Shown here piece by piece: positions 4,692-63,703 of a DNA stretch of 64,000 nucleotides. The position numbers were made by a program, and so were the translations under genes. Under the pieces are notes generated by a model that did not search any database, was not told where the DNA came from, and worked only from the letters and a program-made list of their open reading frames with translations. The DNA is taken from NCBI GenBank assembly GCA_000004985.1, contig GG738897.1, one strand, 5' to 3'. Source of the stretch: Naegleria gruberi (Eukaryota). Within the stretch, counting starts at the first letter, position 1; every line of letters begins with the position of its first letter.

Positions 4692-6119
4692 ATGAAAGCA
4701 AATGTCGGTTCTTCATCATTATTATTGCTGTTCATATTAGTACTTGGACTTTCGGATAACTATTTCTATTCGAAACAAATAGTACATGCTGCGGAGACTT
4801 TAACCGTCTCTGTTGAAACTCTCTCCATTTCAGAATATTTTAAGCTTGGATTCCAAAATCTTGATTATAATCCCAATACTAATGTAAATACTTTCTCCCA
4901 AAATGCCTATACGAAATATCATATAGTTCACATCCAATCTCATCAGATAGCTGCTGTTCCATTCACCACTCTGAATACTACTGGAGTACTTGCTGAGGAC
5001 GAAACTTTATTGAATGAGCTCTCACAAATATACGAAACTAAAGTACTCAGTAATTTCATCAAGAAAAACACTCTATTACAAGAAGTAGCTTCACTTTCGT
5101 CCGACGAAGAATTGGATTACATGTATGCATGTTGTTCAGATGATGATTTAGTAATGATGACTGCTTGGAATGAATCCAATTTTTTACTAGACGAAACTGC
5201 AAGACGAAAGAGGAGAATTGATTCAAAACTTGCCTCAACTGTTTCCATTTCTACCAATCAAAAGAAATCAGTTTCTTTCTATTCAAAACTCGAGGATGAA
5301 CATTGGTTATTAGATCAGCTATGGAGTGACATTCCAATAATTGCTATCCCAATCGAATATTTAGATCATTTATTTTTGAATATTAAGAATAATATTTATA
5401 TGGGAAGTTTTAAAGAAAATGGAATTAGGAAGGAGGTGAATGATTATGAATTGGAAGATTTATTTCATTTGGTTGGAACAGAGGGAGTTTTGACAATGAC
5501 TGTTGTGAAAACTTCTCCACAAGTTTCGTCCAGTGAGGAATTGATGAATTTGTTGACTATGGAGCAGAAAGATGAAATTGTTCAAGCAATTAAGAAGAAT
5601 ATTCAGGTGGAAATCTTGGATAAGTTGCTGAGATTTGAAAAATCATGTAACGTGACAAATTCAACTGCCATTAGTCAAATGAGAGATTATCACAATGCCT
5701 TATTCAGGAAATCAATGGGATTTGGTTATTTTACAGAAGAACAAAGTCAAGCACTTTCTTATTATCTATACATGAATGCATATGTTACAAAGAATTTGGA
5801 ATTACAACAATTACCAATACTTTCCTATACGAATGATTTATTCTGGACAGCAATGCAAATTTTATATAACGAATCGACTGATTTGAGAACTGTTCTGGAA
5901 AATGAGGGATACATGAATGATGAGAATCAGACTTTTCAATCTTACATGTTAAATGCATTTTCTGGATTCAAACAGAATTTGAATCAATACATTACCTCAA
6001 ACTTTTATCAAGCTCAATGCTATAGTGGATTTAATGATTACTTGGGGATGTTTCACTATTATTCATACTCTTCCTACGAATTCTTCATGTTTAAGGATGG
6101 AATTTTATCTCTGCCTTGA
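4692..6119 (+). CDS. hypothetical secreted protein (475 aa) with N-terminal signal peptide
   Basis: ATG in A-rich context. Hydrophobic N-terminus MKANVGSSSLLLLFILVLGLS, then a non-repetitive hydrophilic body. Continuous ORF. Confidence 0.5.
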   Translation: MKANVGSSSLLLLFILVLGLSDNYFYSKQIVHAAETLTVSVETLSISEYFKLGFQNLDYNPNTNVNTFSQNAYTKYHIVHIQSHQIAAVPFTTLNTTGVLAEDETLLNELSQIYETKVLSNFIKKNTLLQEVASLSSDEELDYMYACCSDDDLVMMTAWNESNFLLDETARRKRRIDSKLASTVSISTNQKKSVSFYSKLEDEHWLLDQLWSDIPIIAIPIEYLDHLFLNIKNNIYMGSFKENGIRKEVNDYELEDLFHLVGTEGVLTMTVVKTSPQVSSSEELMNLLTMEQKDEIVQAIKKNIQVEILDKLLRFEKSCNVTNSTAISQMRDYHNALFRKSMGFGYFTEEQSQALSYYLYMNAYVTKNLELQQLPILSYTNDLFWTAMQILYNESTDLRTVLENEGYMNDENQTFQSYMLNAFSGFKQNLNQYITSNFYQAQCYSGFNDYLGMFHYYSYSSYEFFMFKDGILSLP

Positions 6120-55776: not shown

Positions 55777-57564
55777 ATGAAACAGATGAAGAGATCCATT
55801 GTACAATTAGCCAAGGCTCAAACTAAGTCTACCACTGCTGCTGCCTTCTCCAACACCTTTGTTAATCAACAACGTACCAAGAAGGTTGATGTTAAGGTCA
55901 AGAAACTTTTCATTGGTGGTGAATTTGTTGAAGGAAAGGAAGGAAAGAAATTCTCTGTATACAATCCAGCAACTGAAGAAGAAATTTGTCAAATTTCCGA
56001 AGCCACTGCTGCTGATGTTGATGATGCAGTTCGTGTTGCTAGAAATACCTTTGAAAACGTCTGGAGAAATTATGCACCATCCCAACGTGTTCGTCTCATG
56101 AATAAGTGGGCTGATTTGATTGAAAGAGATGCTGATTATATTGCTGATTTAGAATGTATTGATAATGGTAAGCCACGTGATATGGTCAGAAATGTTGACA
56201 TTTACTTGGTTCTCCAATGTATTAGATACTATGCTGGTTGGGCTGATAAGATTAACGGTAAGACCATTCCAGTTGACTCTGACTTCTTTGCCTACACTCA
56301 AAGAGAACCAGTTGGTGTTTGTGGTCAAATTGTTCCATGGAATTTCCCATTGGTTTGTTTCTTTTTAATTATTTTCTAATTATTTTAATTTTTTAATTTA
56401 ATTTTTTTTTTAAATATTTTAATATTTTAATTAAATTTATCAAGTTGATGGCTGTAAGTAGAATAGTAAAGAATTATGAAATAATTAACACAAATTCTAT
56501 AGACTTGGAAGTGGGCACCATGTTTGGCAACTGGTAACGTTTCCATTTTGAAGACTGCTGAACAAACTCCATTGTCTGCATTGTACGTTGCTAAATTGGC
56601 TCATGAAGCTGGATTCCCACCAGGAGTCATTCAAGTTTTGAGTGGTTTTGGTGAAACTGTTGGTAATGCATTGACTCATCACATGGATGTTGATAAGATT
56701 TCATTCACTGGTAGCACTGAAGTTGGTAAAAAGATTCTTGGAGCTTCTTCCAAGACTAATTTGAAGAGAGTTACTCTTGAACTCGGTGGTAAATCAGCAT
56801 TGATTGTCATGGGTGATGTTAAGGATCGTGCCACTCTTGAAAAGGCTGTCAATATTGCCAATCAAGGTACCTTCTTCAATCAAGGTCAAGTTTGTACTTG
56901 TTCATCTCGTGTCTTTGTTGCCTCCAATATTTATGAAGATTTCTTGAAGATTTCTAAGGAACTTGCTGAAAAGAGAGTTGTTGGTAACCCATTCGATTCC
57001 AAGACTGAACAAGGTGCTCAAGTCAGTGAAGAACAATTCAACAAGATTATGAGCTACATTGAATATGGTAAGAATAATACTAGACTTGTCACTGGTGGTG
57101 AACGTGCCCATGCCAAGGGTTACTTTGTTAAGCCAACTGTCTTTGCTGATGTTGAAGATACTCATAAGATTGCTCAAGAAGAAATCTTTGGACCAGTTAT
57201 GAGTGTTTTGAAGTTTGATCATGATAATGTTGAAGATGCTATCAGAAGAGCCAACAAGTCTGAATATGGTTTGGCTGCTGGTGTCATTACTCATGATCTC
57301 AACCAAGCTCACAGAGTTGTAAGTTTATTATTTTTAAATTTTTTCTAATTTTCACTAATTATCATTCATTTACAGACATCGGGTCTTAGAGCCGGAACTA
57401 TTTGGGTAAACACATGGAATGCTTTCTTCAGTAATATTGAATTCGGTGGTTACAAGATGTCTGGTCAAGGTAGAGATTTGGGTGAACATGCTTTGGATGA
57501 ATATACTGAAAATAAGTCTGTCATTACTCATATCCCAGGTTTGAAACGTCCATACAAGTTTTAA
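55777..57564 (+). CDS. aldehyde dehydrogenase (NAD+), ALDH1/2 (mitochondrial-type) family, 529 aa, 4 exons: 55777..56352, 56445..56453 (9-nt microexon), 56503..57318, 57376..57564
   Basis: N-terminal presequence-like MKQMKRSIVQLAKAQTK. Motifs KLFIGGEFVEGKEG, VGVCGQIVPWNFPL|LMA|TWKWAPCLATGNVSILKTAEQTPLSAL, FTGSTEVGKKI, ELGGKSALIV, catalytic Cys region NQGQVCTCSSRVFV, EEIFGPVMSVLKF, then ...AHRV|TSGLRAGTIWVNTW and GYKMSGQGRDLG. Intron 1 is 56353..56444 (gtttgt...tcaag), intron 2 is 56454..56502 (gtaagtag...tctatag), and intron 3 is 57319..57375 (gtaagttt...tttacag). All are in phase 0. Confidence 0.85.
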
Positions 57565-57694: not shown

Positions 57695-60600
57695 ATGCGA
57701 ACACAAATACTCTGTATTTTTATTATTAATGCCATTCTCCTTGCCATCACAACACAAACAACTGTCCATTCACAAAATCCTCCTGAAAATCCTTCATGTA
57801 CTTCACAATTTCTTGTGAATAATGAAATTTCAAAAGCTATGGAATATTTACAGTTCAATATGTTCATGATGATGACTTCGGAATTTGATGATCATCAACA
57901 GGATTTTTCATCGTCACAAGCGAGAAATGTGAAGAATTGCAGTTTGGCAAATCCGTGTGAAAATTTAACACAAATTCTCTCAGTACTGAACAAGACACTT
58001 GTGGAAGATAATTTTAACTTTTATAATCGGTCAACTGAGAGGCTGGTAGTTTTGAATATTAATTTATTGAATGATATTTTGGATACAACTGAACATTTTA
58101 TTGAAACTCCAATAATTTCTGGTTTGAATTATATTTTCAAATTTAAGAGCGTATCAGATTCGGATAGAAATTTGATTCAATTGAAATGGAAGGGATCTTA
58201 TGATCGATCCTATGTATTGACAAGACCAGATATTAAGTGGTTTTACTTTGAGAATGTGACACTTAATTTATTTAGATTGAATAATACGGATGTTGCAAAT
58301 CTTGGTTTTTGTAATTGCTTAATTGTGGATACGTGGTTGAATTTTGTAACGAATAGAGATTTTTATATTGAAAAGAGTCAATTGATTAGATCAATTATTT
58401 ATGCAACTACAAATTTGTGGTTCTATGACAGATCAGAAACCATTAAATATGGAGAATATTATGTGACAGGTTTGACAGCTATTTATAATAATAGTGAAAT
58501 TCATGAAACACGACTCAGATGGACAGTCAGCAGTGTTACAAATCTAATAATTGAAAATTCATTATTTGAAGATTTTTTGGTGGAAATGACCTTCAAACAA
58601 GTGACAAATGTTCTCATTCGAAACTCCACCTTTATTCGTGATTATTTGGATTATAAGGAAGAGTCAGTGAATGCACTTCAAGGAAATTCATTTCGTGTTA
58701 TTAATTGCACCTTTCAACATGCTTATTCATTCCTTTTTGTGAGATCTTATATTTTTGTTTCAATTGATAGCTCAATTGTTTCTAATAATCAGCTGATGAA
58801 GGAGAATTTAATTAGTGTTTTCTATGGGATTATTGCAATTCAGAGTTGTATCACTGTTATGGTTTCCAATTCTCAATTTTCAAACAATGAAGGTTATGAA
58901 AGAGCTTCTGCACTTTACTTGTCAGATGTCAATGTATTCCATGTGAGAAATTGCCAGTTCACTAACAATTCTGCCTCCAGCATCTTCTCAAATAGTTATC
59001 CTAATAGAATGTTTGATAATGATAAGTCTTATTACTGGTATACTGTTTCCAATTGCAAATTCGAAGGAAATACCTGTAACAAGGAAGGTTGTGGAATTTA
59101 CATTTCTGACTCAATTGACCTGACAATTCAAAACAATATTTTCCTGAATAACACAGCTCAATATGGTGGAGCAGCTCTCTTTATCAAAATTGGAGCCAGA
59201 GCTGTAATTTTAAATAATTTATTTATTGGAAATAAGGTACTTTACAATAATTTATTACGACAACCTGCTAGTACTTTCTATTATGGAGGCGGAGGAGCTG
59301 TTTCTATAATTACTACTCAATTGGGACTTTCAGAAAGCAAACTATTGGCAAATACTTTCATTAATAACGAAGCTCTCTATGGTGGTTCATTATTTTTTGT
59401 TAGGGAATCTTTGGTGGAAATTTCCAATTCAACATTTATTGGAAATAAGGCAAAGAGAGGAGGAGCCATGTTTTACTATTCACCAAGTGTAGAACAAACT
59501 GAAATATTTGATAATGTGTTTAAGGAAAATGTTGCAGAAATTGGAAATGATTTATTGACAAGTGTCGTTGCTTTGGATTGGGATAATAGTACTGTACATC
59601 ATGTCAAACCGGGTGATGCTATTTCATTGGATGTAAAGACATTCGAATTGGGTGGATTACTTATTCCAACAAATACTGAAAATTTCACAGTCTTTACTGA
59701 TAACCCAAGTGTTTATTTGGATTTTTTACAGAACGAAACCTCATTTACAATATCCATGTATTTAATGGGTGATGTTACACCAAATTCCTATGGAAATTTC
59801 ACACTATTCCTTGATAGCAATCCAGCAATTACCTTTTTTCATTATTCCATCAATTCATGTGGGGAAGGAAATGAATTGAGAGTAATTGGTAAGAATCAGA
59901 TGGCCGTTTTGAAATGTGTGCCATCTCCTGCTAGCCTACTACCTCTAATTCTATCAGTTTCCATTCCAGTTGGTGTTTTTATTGCCATAGTGAGTGTTTT
60001 TATTGGAATAATTTTGGGCATGGTTGGAATTCCAAAAATTAATAATATAAAACGACGATTGAATCTATTGCAGGAAAAGGAGAGTGCCGAGCAGAGTGTT
60101 GAGCAGAAGATTATTGATAAGAAGGTGGTATTCAATATGAACGATGAAGGTGACTTTAAGGAGCCATTACTGAAAAACTATGAACTGGAAGATCCAATAT
60201 TTCGTTTTATCATTTCTCCAAAGGATATTGACATTGTAAAGAAGGTAGCAGAAGGAGGGTATGTAGTTGTGTGTTTATTGTAACAATTCACTAACAATTT
60301 GATAAGAAATGGAGTGGTTTACAAGGGAACGTGGAAAGGAATTGAAGTTGCCATTAAGACTATTAAGGCAAAGAATGAAAGTAGAGACGATTTTGAGAAT
60401 GAAATTTCACTTCTCGCCTCTATTAGAAATCCACATATTTTGAATTTTTATGGAGTTTGTGTGACGGAGAATGAAACATTTATGATTACAGAGTTTTTGG
60501 AGAATGGAAGTTTGGAGGGGATTATTTATTTGAGTAGGATTGGTCAATTCAAACTCTCATTCCATGAAAAATTGAGAATTTTATATGAAGTAGCTATTGG

Positions 60601-61244
60601 AATGGATTATTTACATTCGTTAACACCAAAAATTGTTCACAGAGATTTGGTAAGTTTCGAATTTTGAAAATCTGCCTCAAATTTACATTTTCTATTAGAA
60701 ACCTGGGAATATTCTATTGGATAAGGATATGCATTGCAAAGTATGTGATTTTGGTCTTTCCAGAACTGTAAATCAAAATACCAATCACTCAATTACAAGA
60801 AATGTTGGTACATTATTCTACCTTAGCCCAGAAATGTTTGAAATTGATCAAACCAAAGTTGATCCTCACAATGTTTCTAAAATAGATACCTATAGTTTTG
60901 GAATAATCATGTGGGAACTTTTCTTTGAGCTAGCTCCATTCACTGAAAATAGGAAAACTGTTCGAATGTTACATGAAGATGAGAATTCTAACAATTTGAA
61001 CACAATTAACATGTTACATTTGGTATCAAAGGGAAAGAGACCTTCCATTCCATTCGAATCTATAGAGGAAGTTAGAGAATGGTTACTTATTTATGAGGAG
61101 GATAAGAAATTCAAAGGAGCTAATATTGTTTTGGAATATTTTGAATTGACTAAACAGTGTTGGAGTGAACAGCCAAGTACTAGACCAGAATTTAATGTGA
61201 TTGTCAAAAAACTTTACAATTTCATGGAAAGAATCAAGCAGTAA
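57695..61244 (+). CDS. receptor-like protein kinase: signal peptide, large extracellular domain of Pmp-type (GGA[ILV]/FxxN) right-handed beta-helix repeats, single TM, cytoplasmic TKL-like Ser/Thr kinase; ~1150 aa, 3 exons: 57695..60258, 60307..60649, 60699..61244
   Basis: Signal peptide MRTQILCIFIINAILLAITTQTTVHS. Repeats include FTNNSASSIF, FLNNTAQYGGAALFI, YGGGGAVSI, FINNEALYGGSLFFV and FIGNKAKRGGAMFYY. TM is LLPLILSVSIPVGVFIAIVSVFIGIILGMVGI. Kinase junctions are ...KKVAEGG|NGVVYKGTWKGIEVAIKTIK and ...IVHRDL|KPGNILLDKDMHCKVCDFGLSR, then GTLFYLSPE and YSFGIIMWE. The introns are 48 and 49 nt (gtatgt...tgataag, gtaagtttcg...tctattag). Confidence 0.75.
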
Positions 61245-61405
61245 ATTACTTTGAATCCACAACTTGCTGAGTGAACAATTAGTTTTGTAAACTATACGAG
61301 CTCAATAGTGAATGAATGAACTTGAATTCTAAAAATAAACTTCTTCATCTTTAAATTTTACGTTAAAACTCAAACTTGAAAAGAAAACAAAAAAAAATAA
61401 CACAA

Positions 61406-61933
61406 ATGTCGACCACCACCGCAACTACTTCTGACCCACCTGCTATTATAAACAACGCCACCCCTAGCCAATCTCCAACTCTTGAAATTACAATGACATT
61501 CAGAGCAGAGCCAAAGAAACGATCGATAAAACTTGAAGATCCTCAAAAAACATTTCACATGATGATTGTGTGGGATAAGACGAAACCAGAAAATCATCAA
61601 TTGGAATATACTACCATTATGAATGATTTGAAAAAGTTACTCTCTGAAAATAATAATACCATCTATTTCATTCCTAGAATTGCTTGTACCAATTCGACGT
61701 ATGGTGAGGTCGATGATTGGTTGACTGATTATATACTAAAGCTCAGAAATGAAAAGTCGTGGATTCATTGTGAAAAGGATCTTGATAGCAGAGTAGAGGG
61801 ACAAGTTGGTGATTATAATTTGTTTGCACACATTTCGAGGAGAATGATTGAGGAGGGAAGTCCATTGAGGAATTCACTGTCTAATGTTGCTGGACAAGTA
61901 ATCAAAATTAATATTGTAAACTATAAGAAGTAA
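61406..61933 (+). CDS. hypothetical protein (~175 aa)
   Basis: The track ORF starts on a non-ATG codon. The first ATG at 61406 gives MSTTTATTSDPPAIINN.... Non-repetitive globular C-terminal region, no recognisable motif. Confidence 0.4.
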   Translation: MSTTTATTSDPPAIINNATPSQSPTLEITMTFRAEPKKRSIKLEDPQKTFHMMIVWDKTKPENHQLEYTTIMNDLKKLLSENNNTIYFIPRIACTNSTYGEVDDWLTDYILKLRNEKSWIHCEKDLDSRVEGQVGDYNLFAHISRRMIEEGSPLRNSLSNVAGQVIKINIVNYKK

Positions 61934-62398
61934 ATTAAGGAGAAGGAAAAAGAATCCTTTTCTTCATGTAGCACTTTGTAAAAGATAACACAGTTTAAAC
62001 TTTACAAAAATATTTACAGTGCACTGTAGAATAAAAAAATCTTCAAAGATTTCACTGAAAATATGCCGAAATGCAAATGTTTAGCTTGTATACCCAACCA
62101 ATGGGAATATCTGAAACAGAGACGCTGTTTACAAAAGCGAGTTATGCAACAAGAATTGTTTCCAATTCTGTGGACACATTAGATTAGAAATAGTTCCTTA
62201 AAGTATTATCACTACACTGGCAATGAAACATTTACTTCTCAAATATACTCCTTAAAGTCTTTTTGGCGTTTTACATTCCGGTTGTAAAACGAAACGGACT
62301 ACCATTTAAGGAATCGAATAGTTTTCTAGTGGGACCTTCATAAAAACATTTAAACGCTTAAAATCTTGCAAAAGCGAAAAGAAACTGTTAAGAAAAAT

Positions 62399-63703
62399 AT
62401 GAAACTTTGTATCTTGCTTGTTGCTGCTCTTTGTTTAGTTTTTGGTTTCGTCCACTGTCAATGGAGTCAAAAGAATTACGACCAATTCCAATCCATGCAT
62501 GTTCCTTTGCATGCAGATAATGCAAATTGGTTCAACCAATTCCAAGCTCCAAACTTTCTCTACACCCAAACCATTTTAGATTCCCTCATTGTTGATGTAA
62601 AGAATAATCAAGCTCTCGTTGCTTTACAATATCACACAGAGTTGGCTTTATTGAAAATCAACATGTTGAATGGTGCTTATCAATATGTGAATGTTTCTGC
62701 AGGTGAAATCCATGAAAACTTACATTATGTCTCCTCAGTAATTGATAGTAACAACTACTATTACATCTTGTTGGATAATGAGAAGGATAATAAGGCATAT
62801 CTATTTAAGGTTAATGTTCTTGGAGTTGGTAAGAGTCAAGTGTCTTTCTTACCAATGGGAGGGGTAACTGCTATGGTTTACTCTGAAATGTTTGATTCCA
62901 TTGTTATTAGCTCACACGATGGAGTTATTTCATTGGATTGTAAAACTCTTTCCCAAAATTGGAAATTGCAGTTGAAAGACCAATCAAAGATTCACTTGTT
63001 GACACAAGAACTCAACACTGAGTACATTTACATTTCCTTCATGGACAGTTTGGTCAGTAGAATCCATGTTGAGAATGGCAAAATCTCTGGACAAATCAAA
63101 CTTCATAACGGTACCATTGCCTCTATCAGTAAGTTCAAGAACGATCCAAATGGATTCCTTGTTGCAACCATCACTAATGATGTGGAGATGACTGATTACA
63201 TTGCCTTCTTCAATATTGATAAGCAAGTCTCTACTCAAAACAAATTGCTCGTTCAAAATATCAGAGGATCTTTCCATCAAGCTTATTGTAATCCTGCTAT
63301 TGGTTTCTTCAATAATACTAAACAAGGTGGAGAATACAATGCTGTTGTTTCATGTGGATTGTTGCAAAGATCACCAATTTATACCACCAACTTTATATTG
63401 AGCTTGAAATTCACTGTAAACCAATTCAATGCTATTGACATGCATCAAATGTGGGAAAAGAAAGTTGATGAGGAGAACTTGCAATTTGTTGCTTACAATC
63501 AAGATTTGAATCAAATTGTAACCACTGATACTGAATATTTACTTGTTGATAGCGTTACTGGTAGAGTTCTCAAGACATTTAAATCTAACATCTTGAATAG
63601 TCCAAATGGTGTTAATGGATTCAAATATTTGACTGATAACAATGGAAAGATTTATGCCATTGGTGTTGACCCAAGTCAATTAATTTCGTTTGAATCTTTG
63701 TAA
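62399..63703 (+). CDS. hypothetical secreted protein (~434 aa), possibly beta-propeller-like
   Basis: The first ATG (62399) gives the signal peptide MKLCILLVAALCLVFGFVHC. The mature region is rich in predicted beta-strand segments with periodic N/D/G turns. No confident family assignment. Confidence 0.5.
   Translation: MKLCILLVAALCLVFGFVHCQWSQKNYDQFQSMHVPLHADNANWFNQFQAPNFLYTQTILDSLIVDVKNNQALVALQYHTELALLKINMLNGAYQYVNVSAGEIHENLHYVSSVIDSNNYYYILLDNEKDNKAYLFKVNVLGVGKSQVSFLPMGGVTAMVYSEMFDSIVISSHDGVISLDCKTLSQNWKLQLKDQSKIHLLTQELNTEYIYISFMDSLVSRIHVENGKISGQIKLHNGTIASISKFKNDPNGFLVATITNDVEMTDYIAFFNIDKQVSTQNKLLVQNIRGSFHQAYCNPAIGFFNNTKQGGEYNAVVSCGLLQRSPIYTTNFILSLKFTVNQFNAIDMHQMWEKKVDEENLQFVAYNQDLNQIVTTDTEYLLVDSVTGRVLKTFKSNILNSPNGVNGFKYLTDNNGKIYAIGVDPSQLISFESL

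Follow-up and report, generated by a model that had tools for sequence, protein, structure and literature searches.

Single-pass receptor kinases arose repeatedly in eukaryotes (in animals, plants, Entamoeba and oomycetes), with a different sensing module each time. Here we describe a locus of Naegleria gruberi, NAEGRDRAFT_72446, which lies at positions 57695-61244 of a 64,000-nt stretch (hereafter the window) of contig GG738897.1, assembly GCA_000004985.1. We consider it likely to be one three-exon gene, whose product is a type I single-pass receptor-like protein kinase of the tyrosine kinase-like (TKL) group with a beta-helix ectodomain. What is new is the beta-helix ectodomain on the known plan of a receptor-like kinase; the gene itself is known in RefSeq, otherwise ordinary, and uncharacterised. 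The Naegleria family to which it belongs adds an example of a receptor kinase from Discoba, with a sensing fold that is known mostly from adhesins of bacteria and from carbohydrate-active proteins.

Among eukaryotes, the closest analogues are the Pmp-like proteins of trichomonads (the TvPmps of Trichomonas vaginalis), which, like the Naegleria protein, are of type I with an N-terminal beta-helix of FxxN and GGA(I/L/V) motifs (PMC6701047). Both also have a single transmembrane (TM) helix on the C-terminal side, where bacteria have an autotransporter barrel (PMC6701047). In the trichomonad proteins the cytoplasmic part is a short tail that bears endocytic motifs (PMC6701047), whereas the Naegleria protein continues into a cytosolic part of ~370 residues with a juxtamembrane motif and a kinase, and differs from them also by its immunoglobulin (Ig)-like stalk. 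With chlamydial Pmp and other bacterial and archaeal proteins of the Chlam_PMP family (PF02415) it has in common the paired FxxN/GGA-type motifs, one rung apart, and the right-handed beta-helix (PMC10715098, PMC11166332). Neither the autotransporter beta-barrel (PF03797) nor the Pmp middle domain was found in the Naegleria protein in a Pfam scan at E<=1; the bacterial relative P0007 does carry PF03797, whereas in the Naegleria protein a TM helix provides the anchor and a kinase is attached.

As functional analogues, the receptor-like Ser/Thr kinases of plants and the transmembrane kinases of Entamoeba come closest. Plant RLK/Pelle proteins and the Entamoeba histolytica kinases (PMC2880585) follow the same plan of signal peptide, variable ectodomain, TM helix and HRDLKxxN kinase, but the plant ectodomains are of leucine-rich repeat, LysM, lectin or malectin type and those of Entamoeba consist of CXXC-rich repeats, whereas the Naegleria ectodomain is a Pmp-type beta-helix with 14 Cys residues and not a single CXXC. 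NosD, Streptococcus pneumoniae PfbA, Bordetella Vag8 and phage tailspikes likewise have the pectin-lyase fold (8-16% identity), but are all without an attached TM helix and kinase.

Gene model and architecture

Behind a long open reading frame (ORF) on the plus strand (57695..60283, 862 codons), two shorter ones lie in different frames. The first-pass annotation of this stretch had joined them into one gene through two introns, and GT..AG introns of 48 and 49 nt are indeed found at exactly the sites it had claimed:

57695..60258, plus strand: exon 1, residues 1-854 and 2 nt of codon 855; signal peptide, ectodomain, TM helix, juxtamembrane segment, first strand of the kinase and start of its glycine loop
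60259..60306, plus strand: intron 1, 48 nt, GTATGT...ACTAAC...AAG; interrupts the glycine loop of the kinase (AEGG/NGVV)
60307..60649, plus strand: exon 2, ending at residue 969; N-lobe of the kinase up to HRDL
60650..60698, plus strand: intron 2, 49 nt, GTAAGT...TTAG; between HRDL and KPGN
60699..61244, plus strand: exon 3, residues 970-1150 and the TAA stop; C-lobe of the kinase

Joined in frame, the exons give 3453 nt, i.e. 1150 codons plus stop, and the spliced product agrees in each of its 1150 residues with XP_002672468.1 (EFC39724.1, UniProt D2VTW0; P0001 in our set), which is annotated in RefSeq as "predicted protein". The junctions 60258/60307 and 60649/60699 restore AEGG/NGVVYKG and HRDL/KPGN, free of gaps in comparison to seven homologues.

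The join of ectodomain and kinase was further tested comparatively, against homologues. TM helix and juxtamembrane motif are both encoded in exon 1, and so is the beginning of the kinase: the Pfam kinase match begins at residue 846 and the exon ends at residue 854. The N. lovaniensis homologue P0002 is located on PYSW02000036.1 (locus L001), where an uninterrupted ORF (L001:6756..8612) runs from the repeat rungs (GGAALFI, GGALSI, GGALFFV, GGAIFHY) through the stalk, the TM helix, the juxtamembrane motif, the glycine loop (this region reads IAEGGMGCVYLGKW) and VAIK to HRDL. Intron 1 of N. gruberi is absent from this homologue, the same position being read through. Since a single N. lovaniensis ORF spans the way from the beta-helix repeats to HRDL, the fusion of ectodomain and kinase is independent of the splice prediction. 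The predicted signal peptide, the beta-helix ectodomain, the single TM helix and the kinase had been assigned to one product, and this assignment is supported by the Pfam matches, by the identity to XP_002672468.1 and by the N. lovaniensis ORF.

Within the window, tblastn with the ectodomain as well as with the kinase returned the gene itself only, and no local synteny with the N. lovaniensis homologue was found beyond the gene itself.

Fold and repeats of the ectodomain

The ectodomain (residues 1-749) was modelled with AlphaFold from an alignment of ten family ectodomains, with a mean predicted local distance difference test score (pLDDT) of 80 and a predicted template modelling score (pTM) of 0.75. 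The model consists of a mixed alpha/beta cap (~35-175), ~17 three-stranded rungs (~180-630) and a separate beta-sandwich (635-743). The predicted order of the whole protein is signal peptide, N-terminal cap, right-handed beta-helix of ~17 rungs, Ig-like stalk, TM helix, juxtamembrane motif and TKL-type kinase. The extracellular parts are the following:

57695..57769, plus strand: predicted signal peptide, residues 1-25, MRTQILCIFIINAILLAITTQTTVHS/Q, from the sequence
57797..58219, plus strand: N-terminal cap, residues ~35-175, delimited by the secondary structure of the model; a C-x5-C motif (C82, C88) is conserved in the family
58232..59584, plus strand: right-handed parallel beta-helix, residues ~180-630, ~17 rungs
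58877..59545, plus strand: Pmp-type rungs within the helix, residues 395-617, delimited by motif counts against shuffles, Chlam_PMP and the invariant F/N/A/G/G/A columns of the family
59597..59923, plus strand: membrane-proximal Ig-like beta-sandwich stalk, residues 635-743, with the conserved pair C722...C741

Behind its charged N-terminus (MR), the putative signal peptide has a hydrophobic core; its presumed cleavage site (VHS/Q) has V at position -3 and S at -1. It appears as a low-confidence helix in the model. In the cap, C88 is nearly invariant (alignment A1 of the family ectodomains). Pfam Beta_helix (PF13229, 1e-13, in four stretches) and NosD (1.9e-6) match above their cutoffs, and the NCBIfam parallel beta-helix repeat TIGR03804 matches as well. 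The right-handed parallel beta-helix (pectin-lyase-like) fold is supported by profiles that score above cutoff and by resemblance to solved beta-helix structures. A sequence search of the PDB with the ectodomain profile yielded a single marginal match, the beta-helix of adenovirus LH3 (E 0.047).

How far the rungs can be called Pmp-type depends on whether the N. gruberi copy or the family is considered. The ectodomain had been described as ~750 residues of tandem GGA/FxxN repeats, which is overstated: strict GGA[ILV] occurs only once (GGAV, 533) and the helix takes up only residues ~180-630. What stands is a series of eight FxxN motifs in register (at 395, 422, 456, 483, 510, 555, 581 and 609), spaced 26-45 residues apart. 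Relaxed GG[AGS]x is present at four sites (491, 532/533, 563, 589), and the GG[A/S]x partners of FxxN are those at 491, 533, 563 and 589. Altogether 14 FxxN motifs were counted versus 5.8 +/- 2.2 expected by shuffling, a number reached in only 3 of 2000 shuffles.

The term Pmp-type itself holds for the family, and weakly for the N. gruberi copy. When its residues 474-622 are scanned alone, Chlam_PMP scores 20.8 bits versus a cutoff of 20.6, and for the full-length protein no match was reported at E<=1 in the Pfam scan. Eight Naegleria relatives (seven full-length, kinase-bearing proteins and the ectodomain fragment P0063) score 32.7-48.1 bits. True bacterial examples reach 120-130 bits with 16-17 repeats, versus ~4 paired motifs in the N. 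gruberi protein. In the alignment of the family ectodomains, the invariant columns form the pattern F..N.A..(G)G.A, which recurs at intervals of one rung and is seen four to five times. Judged by these profiles and alignments, membership of the Chlam_PMP class seems borderline for the N. gruberi copy and clear at family level. The repeat is not peculiar to autotransporter adhesins; FxxN/GGA motifs are widespread in bacteria, archaea, trichomonads and green algae (PMC11166332, PMC10715098). PF02415 is not specific to Chlamydia either: the chlamydial share is less than one third of its matches, and ~200 are non-bacterial (PMC11166332). The motifs are buried elements that pack the rungs, while the loops are displayed on one face (PMC10715098).

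A family of Naegleria receptor-like kinases

An exhaustive HMMER search with the ectodomain against 1.84 billion representatives gave 1990 matches at E<=1e-3, only a handful of which are full-length and in a single stretch. The family comprises at least nine genes in three species, as well as two metagenomic fragments:

N. gruberi: NAEGRDRAFT_72446 (P0001) and XP_002670288 (P0011, NAEGRDRAFT_74710)
N. lovaniensis: P0002, P0008, P0009, P0023 and P0063
N. fowleri: P0157 and P0162

All full-length members contain the kinase. Among the 150 best ectodomain matches, the combination of a Pmp-type beta-helix with a kinase was found only in the genus Naegleria, the other proteins (from bacteria, archaea and green algae) being without kinase. 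Of the three regions compared within the family, the juxtamembrane motif has the highest mean pairwise identity (56.5%), ahead of the kinase (49.6%) and the ectodomain (24.8%). The ectodomain diverges at about twice the rate of the kinase, the usual pattern of receptors, with a fast-evolving sensor and a constrained output. In their kinase domains, the family members score 248-328 bits against NAEGRDRAFT_72446, and most other Naegleria TKL kinases at most 269 bits; the kinase domains of the family are thus closer to one another than most of those other kinases are to NAEGRDRAFT_72446, which points to one fusion followed by duplication.

Word-indexed profile searches returned less of the family. 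With the ectodomain alignment, mostly prokaryotic repeat proteins were recovered, and P0002 was the sole other Naegleria member. With the cytosolic part, neither the query nor the known full-length paralogues were returned, and this search revealed P0257, the kinase portion of an N. lovaniensis gene that is split in two.

Several gene models of the family are worth a comment. The adjacent genes C9374_013524 and C9374_013523 of N. lovaniensis (PYSW02000006.1, L002:2489-6375) are one split family member, the former encoding an 806-residue Pmp-type ectodomain (P0063) and the latter a 414-residue juxtamembrane segment plus kinase (P0257). An A5 run near L002:4902-4906, in which the frame shifts by one base, accounts for the split, and the 91 nt left unannotated between the two genes encode the TM helix (IDQALLIGIVVPVGIVFLIGGIIIGISIIM) in the frame of the kinase. 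P0063 therefore only apparently lacks a kinase; the frame change is either an assembly error or the mark of a pseudogene. The P0002 model (C9374_008798) begins at L001:6001, and a separate ORF of 245 residues (5225-5962, within L001:5225-6000) lies just upstream, with a hydrophobic N-terminus and a C-terminal part that aligns to N. gruberi residues 172-215; the P0002 model is probably split or truncated at its N-terminus. P0011 (1046 residues) starts without the signal peptide and the N-terminal cap present in other members, and its model is probably truncated at the 5' end.

The intron after HRDL lies at the same codon boundary in N. gruberi and in L001 of N. lovaniensis. In the latter, the KPGNLLL codons that follow HRDL form a 22-nt micro-exon between two short introns (L001:8542-8563), whereas they are continuous with exon 3 in N. 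gruberi. Together with the glycine-loop intron of N. gruberi, this micro-exon shows that introns were gained or lost in the course of the family's history.

Origin of the ectodomain

Outside Naegleria, the best relatives that can be given a name comprise metagenomic 'predicted outer membrane repeat proteins' along with proteins of a Thermoguttaceae planctomycete, of Methanobrevibacter and other archaea, and of green algae. On this basis a bacterial ectodomain, gained by horizontal transfer and then fused to a resident TKL kinase, as had been suggested before, could be considered. Prokaryotic Chlam_PMP 'outer membrane repeat proteins' make up most of the identifiable best matches outside the genus, and an autotransporter barrel is present in one of these proteins; the trichomonad Pmp-like genes are thought to be horizontally derived (PMC6701047), and many laterally acquired bacterial genes have been reported for N. 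gruberi (PMC4053784). Nevertheless, only the repeat rungs are alike, with ~27-37% identity over query residues ~250-710 (mostly 330-600), and repeats inflate scores and blur phylogeny. Green-algal proteins (Bryopsis with 4.7e-22, Volvox and Flechtneria) rank amid the prokaryotic ones, and in the exhaustive HMMER search neither the cap nor the stalk was covered by any match outside Naegleria. The GC content of the gene (0.30-0.34) is the same as that of the remainder of the window, and the family is older than the split of the three Naegleria species; a transfer, if there was any, predates their divergence. As eukaryotic and prokaryotic matches interleave and the repeats inflate their scores, a horizontal origin is conceivable but conjectural; a bacterial gain followed by fusion to the kinase seems unlikely to us, the mixed character of the best matches giving the earlier idea no support.

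Possible functions of the receptor

We propose that the rigid beta-helix would be a binding scaffold rather than an enzyme, offering its variable loops to an extracellular ligand. Apart from the initiator M, the 32 invariant columns among the ten ectodomains are all occupied by F, N, A, G, P or C; D, E, K, R and H are absent from them, which favours a scaffold over an enzyme. Chlamydial Pmp fragments adhere to cells (PMC2997323) and form homo- and hetero-oligomers and homo- and heteromeric filaments (PMC8326573). By analogy to these adhesins and oligomers, and given the bias of the fold towards carbohydrate binding, the most likely ligands would be glycans or surface polymers on bacterial prey, a substrate or a host, or else a second copy of the receptor. 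Binding of the ligand would cluster the receptors, and the clustered kinase domains could then trans-phosphorylate their Ser/Thr-rich activation loops (DFGLSRTVNQNTNHSITRNVGT), the signal passing to the cytoskeleton or to the differentiation machinery; the conserved juxtamembrane segment would be a likely regulatory or dimerising element.

More specifically, the Naegleria Pmp-helix kinases might be lineage-specific receptors for pattern recognition or adhesion, which sense prey or surface glycans and, in N. fowleri, host surfaces, and translate contact into phosphorylation. We regard this role as tentative and put it forward with little confidence. Should it be true, it would represent an independent invention of innate sensing by receptor kinases in Discoba, with a bacterial adhesin-type module wired straight to a TKL kinase in a bacterivorous amoeba. 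Because the family is conserved in the pathogen N. fowleri, its members are candidates for a role as surface sensor or adhesin, with a kinase that is druggable. Since the output, kinase activation, resides in the same polypeptide, the family also makes a clean case for asking what Pmp-type helices bind.

Several points weigh against regarding NAEGRDRAFT_72446 as a beta-helix receptor kinase. Its product is the weakest Pmp-type scorer of the family; the signal peptide and the membrane topology were deduced from the sequence alone; oligomerisation upon ligand binding is suggested by analogy with other single-pass receptor kinases; and neither the gene, nor the protein accessions, nor the architecture are mentioned in the literature searched. 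Moreover, the structural neighbours of the ectodomain are mostly carbohydrate-active enzymes, which makes an enzymatic ectodomain formally conceivable, if improbable.

Association between family members offers another explanation of the ectodomain: instead of recognising a foreign ligand, the beta-helices could stack homotypically or heterotypically, mediating self or kin contact or cell-cell adhesion. The chlamydial filaments mentioned above and the presence of several paralogues in each Naegleria genome would agree with this. However, the N-terminal cap and the C-terminal Ig-like stalk close both ends of the helix, and with capped ends in a membrane-anchored protein end-to-end stacking becomes less likely; we consider such association hardly more probable than an enzymatic function.

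The latter would imply a surface-tethered lyase, hydrolase or epimerase, on whose activity the kinase reports or which it regulates. The carbohydrate-active enzymes that dominate the structural neighbours could be taken as a hint in this direction, but their sequence identity to the ectodomain is only 8-16%, the conserved columns contain no acidic or basic residue, and the non-enzymatic NosD, the adhesin PfbA and the autotransporter Vag8 score as well as the enzymes in the structure comparison. At the level of sequence, the relatives are Pmp-type repeat proteins, known as adhesins (PMC2997323). An enzymatic ectodomain is therefore improbable, and the binding scaffold remains our preferred view of it.

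Membrane passage, juxtamembrane segment and kinase

The remaining parts of the protein are as follows:

59936..60031, plus strand: single TM helix, residues 748-779, followed by the basic stretch KINNIKRR; strongest Kyte-Doolittle windows of the protein, aligned with the TM helices of 7 homologues
60047..60133, plus strand: cytosolic juxtamembrane motif, residues 785-813, IKRRLNLLQEKESAEQSVEQKIIDKKVVF, from the alignment of 8 cytosolic regions
60230..61211, plus strand: protein kinase domain, residues 846-1140, across both introns, from Pfam and PDB matches

The single TM helix expected from the first inspection was confirmed as one strongly hydrophobic segment. Being the sole strong internal hydrophobic segment and being followed by a basic stretch, it fits a type I topology. 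The family consensus of the juxtamembrane motif is RL..L.EKE.AE..VEQKIIDK.(I/V)(I/V)F; downstream, an (S)PLL motif (residues 824-826) is also conserved, the whole zone covering 60047-60172 of the window. Within the family, both motifs are better conserved than the kinase domain. No Pfam family covers either motif.

The kinase domain is matched by PF07714 (171.6 bits, cutoff 23.1; 2.5e-50) and PF00069 (160.7 bits, cutoff 31.7; 6e-47). All motifs quoted for it earlier (VAIK, HRDLKPGN, DFG and SPE) are present and the catalytic set is complete: K872 (VAIK, 869-872), E887, D968 and N973 (HRDLKPGN, 966-973), D986 (DFG, 986-988) and SPE (1012-1014). Invariant in eight sequences are GG.G, VAIK, the Glu of alphaC, HRDLKPGN, DFG, (S/A)PE and RP.F with the Arg of subdomain XI. 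Judged by these residues, the kinase is apparently active. The nearest solved kinase structures in a PDB sequence search were CTR1 (3.4e-36), TAK1, TNNI3K and RIPK2/3; ITK/BTK as well as the plant kinases CERK1 and Pto-type (PDB 2qkw, 3hgk) ranked lower. As a best-hit assignment, this places the kinase in the TKL group.

Tyrosine kinases have HRDLAARN or HRDLRAAN in the catalytic loop and P-[IV]-[KR]-W-x-APE in the P+1 loop. The present catalytic loop, HRDLKPGN, and the P+1 segment, GTLFYLSPE, are of the Ser/Thr type, and classification as a classical receptor tyrosine kinase is therefore rejected; the closest structures named above agree with this. The first-pass annotation had framed the protein against the absence of receptor tyrosine kinases from Amoebozoa, an argument that is inapplicable, since N. 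gruberi is not an amoebozoan but a heterolobosean of the Discoba. Even for Amoebozoa the premise is shaky, as transmembrane tyrosine kinases do occur there, for example in Acanthamoeba and Physarum (PMC4053784, PMC4758236).

Two features could speak for a pseudokinase or scaffold, in which case the protein would serve only as an adhesin anchor: the first Gly of the GxGxxG loop is replaced by Ala (AEGGNG), and a family-specific insert of 38 residues (~1050-1087) is located between subdomains IX and XI. Against this, K872, E887, D968, N973, D986, (S/A)PE and RP.F are invariant in the eight homologues and the kinase domain is conserved twice as strongly as the ectodomain, which makes the loss of catalysis very improbable and leaves an active kinase as the preferred reading.

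The least probable alternative, an artefact in which ectodomain ORF and kinase exons are two neighbouring genes falsely joined by predicted splicing, may appeal to the fact that the join in the window requires intron 1, a predicted splice, and that one N. lovaniensis member is annotated as two genes (C9374_013524 and C9374_013523), but it is effectively excluded by the content of exon 1 (TM helix, juxtamembrane motif and kinase start), by the N. lovaniensis homologue with one open frame and no intron there, by the full architecture common to seven other Naegleria proteins, and by the one-base frame change that accounts for the split pair, whose gap encodes the TM helix in the kinase frame. Kinase exons belonging to a separate gene had been named as the observation that would overturn the fusion, and the read-through ORF and exon 1 speak against it.

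Neighbouring genes

Directly upstream, an aldehyde dehydrogenase gene occupies 55777-57348 of the window on the plus strand. Its ORF 56524-57348 matches PF00171 (8.6e-98, profile positions 151-413), and the rest of the gene presumably lies in an upstream exon, for example in ORF 55777-56379. Downstream on the plus strand, the ORF 61376-61933 (185 residues) has no Pfam match, and the ORF 62366-63703 (445 residues) has a hydrophobic N-terminal segment and a weak WD40-like match (PF12894, 1.6e-5).

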